Below are positions 33,001 to 36,000 of a stretch of 64,000 nt of DNA, piece by piece; position 1 is the first letter of the stretch; each line of letters opens with the position of its first letter. A program made the position numbers. This stretch comes from Puniceicoccaceae bacterium. GTDB taxonomy: Bacteria; Verrucomicrobiota; Verrucomicrobiia; Opitutales; Oceanipulchritudinaceae. Location of the stretch: positions 64,001 to 128,000 of the forward strand of contig JBFOMH010000004.1 in NCBI GenBank assembly GCA_040830765.1, written 5' to 3'.

Positions 33001-36000
33001 GCGAGATCCTCAAAAAATTCCCGTGATAATACAACTGTATCTGGGTCCAGCTTGATGAGTAAATCGAATGACCGCTTTGCCAAATTTCCAAAACACCAGA
33101 ACACAGTTTTCCCAATCTCGGTATAGGGTCGCGGGGCCTCGGGCACTGTGATGACGGCGATCTCCTCACGGCTTGAGAGTCTGTCAATTAAATTAGATTT
33201 CCCTGTGTTATCAAAGACGTATACTGAAGTGGTATATTCTTCAGGAACCAAGGCCAGTGCCCTGTGTAATCCTTCTTCGGCGATTCTTTCCTCCCCGGGG
33301 GAAACAACTAGGAAGACTGCCAGCGAAAAGTTCATGTCAATTCAACCCTGTCACCAAAACCGAGCTCCTCAAATGTACCCTGCCGTTCCACCCCACCATC
33401 TTTGAGAAGGAAAATCTGGTCAGCTCTACGAATTGTTGTCAATCGATGAGCAATCACAACCAGTGTCATTTGGCCGTAAAGGGCTTCAATTGCCTCCATT
33501 AAGGCTGACTCGGTCGCGTTATCCAGGGCACTTGTCGCCTCATCAAGTACCAGCAAAGCCGGCTTGTGGTACAAGGCACGAGCTAAACCTATGCGCTGGC
33601 GCTGGCCTCCGGACAGGCGAACGCCTCTTTCTCCTACCCGGCTCTGAAATCCATCCGGCAATTCACTTTCTATGAACTCTCGTATCTGGGCAACCTCTGT
33701 AACCGTGCGGAGTTGCTCTTCGTCGATGGCCTTCGCTTCCAACCCAAAGGCCACATTGGCCGCAATTGTGTCGTCCAGTAAAAAGATTTCCTGGGGAACA
33801 TAGCCAATGCTGGCTCTCCATGGGCGCATGTTGTCCCGAGCTAATTCAAGCTCATCAATCATTATCCGCCCGGACTGAGGTCTATGTAATCCCAAAAGGA
33901 TGTCCACCAAGGTCGACTTCCCAGAACCCGTTTCGCCAACAAAGGCAATGAAGGAATTCTTGGGAATTTTCAGAGAGAGACCATTTATGACAGGGCTTTT
34001 CGTCGAGGGGTATTGAAAGGTGATCTTTTCCAACCTTATGGCATTGCTCCACTCCAATTGATTTACATTCGCGGGGCGCCGCGCGATGAGCTCAAGCGTG
34101 TCCGGCTCCTCTGCGGTCATGAATTCATCGTACACCTCCTCCATGCTGTGCATCATCAGGGTTATTTGAGTGGCGGATCCATAGAAGAGCTGGAAGTTAG
34201 GAATCAGCCTGTATCCGGCCATAGCCATGACGCCAAGCATGGGGATAAAGGAAGAAAAGTCCTGCCTTTGTATGGACAATAAGAGCACGAAAATAACGAT
34301 GGCGCCGAACGCCAAGGGCTCAATAAGGTAACGCGGTGCATTCTGGTAAATGGGAAACCACTTCTGCAGGGTCGCTTGGATGGCCGAATGCTGAGCATAG
34401 CGATTTAGGAACACTTGCTCCACTCCGTGCACTTTTATTGGTTTTATACCACCAAGCAGTTGCTGAGCTTCTCGCATGGCACCGCGATTTGCCAACTTCA
34501 TCGAACGCGAGGTGTTTTCTCTTCGATTGCGTAGTATTTTGTAGATTAAGGAGTAAAAAATCCCCAATGCAATCGCTGCTCCAATGGCAAATCCAGGATT
34601 AACCAAGACAAGCGTGAGAATTAGAAAGATGGATGTAATCCCTCGGGCAACACCCTCTAACAAAGGAGACAGCACACCAGAAACATAAGCATAGACATCA
34701 CCTGTTGTCTTTTTGAGTAATTCCCCAGTATTTGTGTTGAGAAAATAGCCGTAGGAATTCTGCAGCATTCGATCGAGGAGGCGCAAGCGCAACCAGTGGG
34801 CATAGCCGTGAGCATAGCGGGTGCGGACAATTTCCCCGGCCATCATCAAAGCATTGGATAGTAATAGCATGATCAGGGCAAAAAGCCCTGCAAAGAATAT
34901 CAAACGAGCATCTGAGAGAGGGGGAAGTGCGTTGAGGAGTATATGCCCGACGGAAGAATCCTTGAAAGCTGCGGGATTTGCCGCCAAAGCGAGAAAGGGA
35001 AAGATGGATGTGACCCCAATGACTTGGAAAAGGCCTTGGGCGAGGATAACGATGAAAACAAAGATCAATCGCTTGCGCCCATAGGGTCGGGCCAAAAAGT
35101 ATGCCTTCCGCAAGAAATCACTAACTTTCGACTTTTCCGTACCAGCCATATTTAGATTGTCATGAGCCAATATGTATCGATTTCCCGATGCTCATTACCA
35201 ATGAATGGGAGTGCGCTGAGGTCCTTAATGAGGAATGCTCTTTTAACTCTTGTGAAATGGGCTGCGACCTCAGCAACCCTATCCTTGCCGTGAATTTCAA
35301 TCAGCCAATCGTGTTTATCGTTCTGAAGTATATCCTGTGCGCCATTGAGGGCCTCGGTCTCAAAGCCCTCAATATCAATTTTGATCAAACCCGACTTCCC
35401 GTGGAGTTCGGGATGGGACTTATGGAAATTGTCCAAGGTAACATAGTCATCTGAATCCTCCGCCCCGACAAATTTCTGCACAACTGTAATCGTGCAATTT
35501 GAGTACTCTTGCCATTCTCTTGGTTGCAGTAAGGATGGCATGTTTCCGGCACCCGGTTCAAAGCTGATAATGTCAACCGGTCGTTGATTTCCTTTAGACA
35601 TCAACCAGGCCAAGCCATAGGTATCGTATCCATCGTTAGCCCCGACATCGAATGCGAAATCCTTTTGCGGAGCAACTTCCTCCAACCAGTCATTAAGGAC
35701 GTGTTCGTAAAGACCGAATATCTTGCGTTTTGAGTCGGCCGGATTCAGAAAGACCCTCGCTCCCTTAAAGGGTCCCCGGAGAATCTTAACATCCTCCTGC
35801 TTGTTACTGAGTAATTTAATGGGATTCATATGACCGTTGTTTCGAGTTTAAATTTGTAGCCCCCACGCTGCCGCCCTTGGTCGAATCCTGAAAATGGAAA
35901 ACCAATCGGAAAACATTTGGTCGATGACCGGGAACTCATAAAACTTTCACTCCCGTAAAACGGGATGGCTGCTGCCTGCAAAGTATGGGGAATCCAATAG

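Follow-up and report, generated by a model that had tools for sequence, protein, structure and literature searches.

The window, the whole stretch of 64,000 nucleotides that was analysed, carries a run of co-directional polysaccharide genes reading from position 57425 to 14979. A short element, made of a hairpin followed by an ops-like sequence, lies in a 238-bp gap within this run. The features are listed below, together with one gene from another contig.

14979..35829, minus strand: variable block; 20.9 kb, co-directional, 47.8% GC
33332..35170, minus strand: PglK/MsbA-like ABC exporter; the first gene past the element in the relatives G013 and G360
35152..35829, minus strand: FkbM-family methyltransferase, the first gene past the element here; starts 34 nt after ops
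35864-35905, minus strand: whole element by sequence, hairpin and then ops-like 12-mer
35864-35882, minus strand: 19-mer (3' stem arm, one G and ops core)
35864-35875, minus strand: ops-like 12-mer with C at position 6, as compared with E. coli ops records
35877-35905, minus strand: RNA hairpin with a 6-bp outer stem (one G-U), a small internal loop and a short inner stem
35900-35905 and 35877-35882, minus strand: 5' and 3' stem arms; one G separates the 3' arm from ops
36014..36021, minus strand: invariant 8-mer with a -35-like hexamer, from the gap aligned in 4 genomes of the genus; candidate internal promoter
36068..57425, minus strand: conserved cluster core, 56.8% GC, with cysC, cysD, cysN, sugar-nucleotide enzymes and four GT4 genes
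C17:3024-3578: P0001, an RfaH-like NusG paralog found by profile search

The genome-wide survey's note had placed this site at the head of a polysaccharide operon. It sits mid-cluster, with 21 kb of co-directional genes upstream and 21 kb downstream. In G000, G013, G352 and G360 the element directly follows the last core gene, the fourth GT4, and the downstream genes differ among the relatives. The window copy marks the boundary between the conserved core and the variable part of the cluster. The variable block, with its epimerases, sulfotransferases, glycosyltransferases and acetyltransferases, would be its target. Two same-strand copies, 6.5-11 kb apart, were present in each of G360, G116 and G363.

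The last paired base of the hairpin is 13 nt from ops U11, which is the register of the Rfam JUMPstart stem. In the 12-mer, which carries C6 and G12, G5 and T11 are retained along with the pairings that form the non-template DNA hairpin (G2:C9, C3:G8, G4-A7; scheme from the accessible part of PMC11001881). The 19-mer has no second match in the 64-kb window when up to 2 mismatches are allowed, with a chance mean of 0.16. By itself, the window hairpin folds weakly (z -0.21; z -2.72 for the copy on contig C12). The case for an RNA structure, as read from sequence, is a comparative one and does not come from the window hairpin alone.

The -35-like box at 36015-36020 lies 110 nt 5' of the stem and is invariant in the intergenic gap of the 4 genomes of the genus. 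No clear -10 box was found at the window site, and sigma-70 consensus scans gave no promoter on the element strand at C4, the contig of the window, or at C12. Sigma-54 patterns upstream of the sites gave 1/107 and 4/107 matches. An upstream ORF running through the element was rejected, as its frame is not kept among 4 relatives. Contigs assembled from the RNA runs of two studies cover both flanks, and one spans the element; two contigs of one study end at 35969-35973. DNA carry-over is possible for all of them.

The genome has two full copies (the window site on C4 and C12:22095) and one partial copy (C18:232-215). We built a covariance model from 100 sites, both full copies of this genome among them, and it recovered exactly these three (C4 and C12 at E ~1e-15, C18 at E 0.003; next match at E 0.3). 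The two ops-type elements and the C18 variant lie where they had been reported. The reported distances of 46 and 91 nt to the operons hold when counted from the first ops base; from the last ops base they are 34 and 79 nt. At C12, these 79 nt lead to a GDP-mannose dehydratase gene, which heads a co-directional run of 14.8 kb.

We scanned 185,579 genomes with a pattern in which the outer arms and ops were fixed, except that one stem pair and ops positions 6, 10 and 12 could vary, and obtained at least 117 loci. Among the matches listed, 75 of the 80 titled loci belonged to Verrucomicrobiota (Opitutales and Verrucomicrobiales, with the cultured genera Cerasicoccus and Persicirhabdus); the others were three Proteobacteria, one Elusimicrobiota and one unnamed. 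The range is wider than Opitutales and takes in Verrucomicrobiales and other orders. A second scan, with a 20-mer, showed the same arms and spacing in Enterobacterales, with a short loop and T6 in 38/38 matches, and C6 in 20/28 Verrucomicrobiota matches. Its 14 further matches in other phyla, most of them without a stem, are probably chance or coding.

Most of the conserved element positions were set by the search patterns. Among the 117 matches listed, position 6 was C in 69, and positions 10 and 12 were variable (position 12: G 47, A 32, C 21, T 17). The free stem pair covaried: T-A in 62 matches, C-G in 52, T-G in 2 and C-A in 1. An alignment of 100 sites was made with identical cores merged and six loci left out (four from other phyla, one stemless, one double match). 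In it, 94.5% of the cells paired, compared with 82.4% in shuffles; two inner pairs had 25 and 49 two-sided changes, while the four outer pairs, fixed by the search pattern, are uninformative for covariation. The inner stem beat 95% of its own shuffles in 54% of 97 distinct sites; related genomes are not independent in these statistics, though their inner stems share little sequence. The internal loop was conserved, with G at -1 in 99/102 sites and a pyrimidine at -2 in 102/102. Degenerate sites beside the paralog gene had changes in the stem arm, G1 or T11, and none in G2-C9. By these comparisons, the element is real and conserved, more than chance would give.

The helix-turn-helix regulator of MarR/GbsR type that often adjoins the element raises the question of whether the element is its operator. 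Its gene accounts for 19 of 30 unannotated ORFs directly upstream, and it is the second gene of the C12 operon. However, the variable loop length, the G-U pairs and the strict strand bias suit RNA or single-stranded DNA and not a duplex, and a separate palindrome 91-167 nt upstream (17/165 sites, control 1) is a better operator candidate. We consider an operator function very improbable.

P0001, the g01663 of the survey, had been called RfaH-like, and its profile scores agree: the RfaH model TIGR01955 scored best, below its cut-off (96.5 bits, cut-off 144.5), with 57.4 bits for the UpxY model (cut-off 100) and 50.6 bits for the LoaP model NF033641 (cut-off 125). RfaH was also the top model by E-value for a set of 64 homologs (best 3e-35), and the nearest protein to P0001 by PDB sequence and by fold; the fold search confirmed a NusG/RfaH fold. 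The genome has two genes with a NusG domain, and the other one passes the nusG cut-off. The P0001 gene stands alone between a PDZ protease gene and mnmA, outside the secE-nusG-rplK setting.

Homologs of P0001 (E < 1e-15) were found in 65 of 161 genomes of the order. At 35 of 84 paralog loci, the element followed the gene on the same strand at a distance of up to 300 nt (up to 2 mismatches; five of the loci were first fetched by the pattern, with their genes in the homolog list), and the reversed and antisense controls gave 0/84. This linkage had been noted by the survey, and it stands. Nothing was found downstream within 3 mismatches at 43 of the 84 loci. In the order, the exact 14-mer was present in 40/65 genomes with the paralog versus 8/96 without (reversed control 10/65 and 14/96), leaving 25 of the 65 paralog-positive genomes in which it was absent. 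In a hand-counted phylum sample, the numbers were 15/47 versus 11/154 (control 2/47 and 11/154). Real-looking sites were also seen in G006 and G120, two genomes of 91-92% completeness in which the paralog search found none. The first downstream ORF was a polysaccharide, sugar-nucleotide, export or PAPS gene at 40 of 68 sites, had no family at 19 and was something else at 9; these ORFs were picked mechanically, with 3 of 70 dropped as doubtful and the C12 gene added.

In genomes without the paralog, the pattern was no commoner than its reversed control, both in the order and in the phylum sample. This speaks against a factor-independent pause, or a site for the housekeeping NusG, which would time ribosome loading or folding and would adjoin the paralog gene because both belong to polysaccharide loci. 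The geometry of the hairpin does suit a pause hairpin, ops-like sequences pause diverse polymerases (available part of PMC7593976), and the residues that contact ops are not conserved in the paralog family. The bases tell against it again. According to the part of PMC5995543 at hand, E. coli ops needs C3, G4, G5, A7 and G8 for RfaH recruitment and not for pausing, and G12 for the pause. The bases kept in Verrucomicrobiota are this recruitment set, and the pause base G12 varies, which points to a factor-loading site rather than a bare pause. A factor-independent pause is unlikely in our judgement. At the pause, the role of G12 could be taken over by the RNA hairpin, whose end lies 13 nt from U11.

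How the paralog would read the site appears to differ from E. coli. There, K10, H20, R23 and R73 of RfaH read ops G5 and T6 (PMC5995543, same part). P0001 has L10, I16, L20, R23 and Q73, and among 107 family proteins K10 was found in 26, R16 in none, H20 in 14, R23 in 10 and R73 in 32. The E. coli-type readout implied by the survey's note is not supported, given that P0001 has other residues in place of K10, R16, H20 and R73, none of which is well kept in the family, and that most sites have C at position 6. The residues that bind RNA polymerase were kept (W4 in 106, Y54 in 107 and F56 in 101 of the 107), the Rho loop of NusG, IFG, reads FLG in the paralog, and a basic beta-hairpin loop is present. 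Since the recruitment bases are kept despite the lost contact residues, a different readout is suggested. With most of the E. coli base-reading residues exchanged and either C or T at position 6, recognition probably goes via hairpin shape, G4, G5, A7 and G8, and basic contacts with upstream DNA, and not via a T6 pocket. A strict coevolution of position 6 with residue 73 was rejected. All 18 T6 sites go with R or H73, but so do 17 of 39 C6 sites, in a comparison that comprises only 4 changes on the tree, and the association is at most a lead.

The RNA hairpin might itself be what is recognised, in a LoaP-like manner, by the paralog or another protein, or it might protect or mark a processed 5' end, with ops being secondary. 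Its stem is longer than that of JUMPstart and has a conserved internal loop, and the basic beta-hairpin loop of the paralog would fit. Yet the 5' arm is absent from the copies at integrons and from several others, all of which retain the 3' arm and ops, the ops core is better conserved than the arm, and UpxY reads upstream DNA and not an RNA hairpin (accessible part of PMC11685472). Recognition centred on the RNA hairpin thus seems quite unlikely.

Regarding a fold switch, the residues for KOW autoinhibition were partly kept in the 107 proteins (E48 in 80, I93 in 69, F130 in none). AlphaFold predicted the KOW domain as beta with 64 sequences; with 8 sequences it placed a helix at 146-156 with low confidence (pLDDT < 50). 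The rows seen of the PMC9247905 supplement include Opitutae and Puniceicoccaceae proteins of the P0001 type, some annotated as RfaH, as predicted switchers. The view that RfaH-like proteins of Verrucomicrobia were unreported is corrected by these rows.

We consider it likely that the element is a lengthened JUMPstart/ops and a loading site for the RfaH-like antiterminator P0001, acting in trans. The sequence, strand, covarying hairpin, gene context and paralog linkage were observed; the mechanism was modelled on E. coli RfaH and Bacteroides UpxY. RNA polymerase, coming from a nearby promoter or from further upstream, would slow at ops positions 9-11, aided by the RNA hairpin ending 13 nt behind the RNA 3' end. 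The non-template strand would fold into the small ops DNA hairpin, the paralog would dock, and a fold switch would lift its autoinhibition. Once docked, it would exclude NusG and hence Rho (the genome has two Rho-like genes, just under the cut-off) and would help to load ribosomes. The polymerase could then cross 15-21 kb of AT-richer polysaccharide genes, or an integron array of 8 kb and more, without polarity. Of the RfaH/ops-type system that had been proposed for Opitutales, the pairing of the element with an RfaH-like paralog before polysaccharide genes holds, whereas antitermination, like every step after loading, would follow by analogy.

The partial copy on C18 lies ahead of an integron attI, as had been claimed. 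After the divergent intI there follow a -35-like box, the partial element, attI and the first cassette. With the Pc consensus as a guide, the leader has a -35-like hexamer, a 17-nt spacer and a weak -10, then attI and cassettes. The integrase scored 378.8 bits with TIGR02249 (cut-off 265), and the attI core is common to relatives. C18 begins with 141 nt that are identical to the end of C7, an overlap running from the attI crossover, and C7 carries 15 attC-like repeats (E < 0.001) over 7.8 kb at 42.7% GC. These repeats were found with a home-made profile and blast; two rule-based finders were dropped after missing known sites. Once the overlapping contigs C18 and C7 are joined, the C18 site leads the array of 15 attC.

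The integron link had been described as weak. It is strong inside the family of this genome: in 37 genomes, 10 of 20 integrase loci had the element, all in cassette direction, with 0 in the opposite direction and 0 for the reversed control (up to 1 mismatch of 14; the second piece of one broken gene was left out of 21 integrase matches). A separately gathered set of 33 integrase loci overlaps the family set and was not added. Elsewhere the link is sporadic, with 4 of 51 integrase loci in cassette direction versus 0 opposite in the order sample (reversed control 1), and 4 versus 1 of 50 loci in other orders (30 best and 20 chosen matches). One further titled locus has the element facing in integrase direction, and in one element-positive integron genome the paralog search found none.

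Four of the ten family sites lie before attI, all in one clade, and six lie 4-859 nt past the intI stop, pointing through intI. From these 3'-side sites, the polymerase would have to traverse intI in antisense, about 1.3 kb that is not translated and would be a natural target for Rho. The short flanks of ten 3'-side loci yielded no attC, and calling the orientation 'cassette direction' at these loci assumes the usual integron geometry. Seven attC follow the site of G356.

A rival reading that concerns the integron copies alone is a mobile promoter-leader module inserting into variable regions, a serious contender to which we give a little less than an even chance. Orientation would then reflect promoter activity, with antitermination incidental. 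G095 has seven near-identical 150-bp modules, the integrons of three close relatives within the attI-side clade lack the site, two sites point in integrase direction, and there are the ten 3'-side sites without attC beyond them. Against such a module stands the family count, given a background of about 0.01 sites per 4 kb and strand. Furthermore, integrons with diverged leaders and with integrases 59-60% identical still share the exact ops, and in a quick tree of 58 integrases (43 of them hand-chosen negatives) at least 7 separate branches carry 3'-side sites. Five of the seven G095 modules lead to same-strand attC-like repeats, three of these five without an integrase in the available sequence.

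A functional meaning of the integron link is conceivable, and we hold it tentatively, somewhat short of probable. In the broader proposal, Verrucomicrobiota would repeatedly have wired a NusG paralog that switches fold and reads DNA with another surface to integrons through an ops leader before attI or past intI. The paralog would carry transcription and ribosome loading into AT-rich arrays and flatten the positional gradient. Second copies within clusters would be reloading points at the borders of exchangeable blocks. We put this forward as a possibility that falls below even expectation.

The protein family is already on record; the additions made here are a changed readout, a mid-cluster position that is conserved, and a recurrent integron link with counts. 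Literature searches, some judged by title or abstract start among the papers listed, gave no account of the cis-element for Verrucomicrobiota in sources other than bioRxiv supplements and subscription journals. The data set of PMC7593976 may list the phylum among its 23. A literature search judged by title or abstract start gave nothing on topic for a link between integrons and RfaH/ops. The available part of PMC7593976 describes the way in which NusG paralogs outside enterobacteria locate their targets as unknown. Here, a phylum-wide pair of factor and site varies naturally at the base and the residues that define E. coli specificity, and because this variation occurs in cultured genera that are not pathogenic (Cerasicoccus, Persicirhabdus), the readout rule is directly testable. 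The pair shows JUMPstart/ops to be older or more mobile than the gammaproteobacterial record indicates. Expression of promoter-distal cassettes has been tied to translation and mRNA levels (PMC11511950); if the integron copies work, they would explain such expression in one lineage. The element is also of practical use as a marker in Verrucomicrobiota genomes, both for polysaccharide loci and for cassette arrays without an integrase.

Among known systems, the element is most readily compared with JUMPstart/ops and RfaH, with which it shares the stem arms, the ops spacing, the ops core and the polysaccharide targets. A stand-alone factor gene with several unlinked sites in this genome is also a likeness to enterobacterial RfaH. 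JUMPstart is listed for gammaproteobacteria in the part of PMC2864571 at hand. Its Rfam model RF01707 matched 0/18 Verrucomicrobiota loci at the gathering threshold and 2/2 E. coli controls, so the model does not reach the lengthened form; around the window site, it gave nothing at E up to 10, and neither did any other Rfam family match. In contrast to JUMPstart, the Verrucomicrobiota stem continues into an internal loop and an inner helix that varies, and there are mid-cluster and tandem copies as well as integron targets. Unlike in E. coli ops, T6 and G12 are not invariant, with position 6 mostly C and positions 10 and 12 free. The protein differs from RfaH in scoring below the cut-off and missing most ops-contact residues, and in many relatives the factor gene lies directly upstream of the element, unlike in enterobacteria.

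The opsX site of Bacteroides UpxY is multipartite and about 40 bp long; its pause-hairpin region ends near -12, and its non-template hairpin is of the form GCG..AGC (PMC11685472, same part). Its layout is similar, and capsule operons are its counterpart to the polysaccharide clusters here. However, UpxY forms locus-specific pairs, whereas here there is one paralog per genome with a shared site; the element is downstream of the factor gene in Verrucomicrobiota, and the UpxY model reached 57 bits compared with 96 for RfaH. LoaP (NF033641) is likewise a specialised NusG paralog with an RNA hairpin in the leader, but it scored 50.6 bits, and in the sources as available its targets are not described with an ops core. 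The integron leader resembles a Pc-attI leader in its -35-like hexamer, 17-nt spacer, weak -10, attI and cassettes, and it differs in having the ops element between promoter and attI, or past the intI 3' end and pointing back. Overall, the element is predicted to work like JUMPstart/ops-RfaH and, as judged from sequence, is homologous to it, while it falls outside formal membership on score, on T6/G12 and on the DNA-reading residues.

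A conserved family of MarR/GbsR-like helix-turn-helix proteins (165-200 aa) adjoins the element, an RNA hairpin with an ops-like 12-mer, in polysaccharide loci. The gene lies either directly before the element or just after it. No Pfam match above cut-off was obtained for the family, and the matches to CudC and MarR_2 were weak. Of 165 sites, 17 carry a palindrome (two 5-bp arms 8 nt apart) that lies 91-167 nt before ops and overlaps a -35-like hexamer; the control gave 1. The palindrome is a candidate operator of the MarR/GbsR-like regulator.

L001:16422-16928 (C12:20421-20927 of the Puniceicoccaceae genome, G000), minus strand: MarR/GbsR-like helix-turn-helix gene, by weak profile matches
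L039, L040, L043, L047, L051-L053, L056, L057, L065: MarR/GbsR-like gene upstream of the element
L108, L110, L118-L120, L122, L124-L126: further loci with this gene upstream of the element
L002:189-206 (C12:22196 region of G000) and 16 other loci: palindrome upstream of ops

In four marine Opitutales, the first gene after the RfaH-like NusG paralog and the element encodes a conserved protein of ~590 aa, with only faint TPR matches.

L087, L092, L095, L096: loci of the ~590-aa protein

Within the phylum sample, family f34 had the paralog in 16 of its 17 genomes and the exact pattern in six. Family f43, whose genomes are mostly 2-3 Mb and of one genus, lacked the paralog in 16/17 genomes; these were also without the pattern, among those searched for it.

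The integron array of G000 is split over two contigs with a 141-base overlap (C7:94103-101859 and C18:1-141). It holds 15 or more attC-like repeats, together with roughly a dozen same-strand ORFs of 100-270 aa. One terminator-like hairpin was found in the C18 leader, with 0.5 expected. A similar hairpin was seen in G355 and none in G356 and G358. Another genome, G095, has seven near-identical promoter-leader modules of 150 bp, each with ops at its end and surrounded by low-complexity repeats. Three of them are followed by attC-like repeats, and no integrase was detected in their vicinity.

L003:269-291 (C18), minus strand: terminator-like hairpin of the integron leader, flanked by the -35-like box and ops
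L066, L098-L103, L280-L284: promoter-leader modules of G095

In the window, the core of the polysaccharide cluster contains a long ORF; G013's syntenic cluster showed no such ORF. An NRPS-like gene, with two adenylation, condensation, carrier and thioesterase domains, is convergent with the end of the polysaccharide block. A short inverted repeat, similar in the window and on C12, where it lies between lepB and the element, resembles a dispersed REP-type repeat.

44289-47828, minus strand: 1179-aa ORF, weak UDPGP match near the C-terminus only
9006-14906, plus strand: NRPS-like protein of 1966 aa, by domain content
57534-57619 (upstream of cysC) and L002:230-290 (C12): short inverted repeat

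Two Rho-like genes of G000 both fall slightly short of the TIGR00767 cut-off; on C2 the match is spread over two frames.

C2:2268-3674 and C25:29200-30321: Rho-like genes, profile TIGR00767

Two 4-mers were enriched 25-75 nt upstream of the stem at 101 sites (titled loci L130-L246). The first occurred in 24/101 at -50 to -25, and the second in 15-17/101 near -25 and -75, compared with 4-11 elsewhere. The Rfam JUMPstart consensus also starts with one of these two 4-mers.
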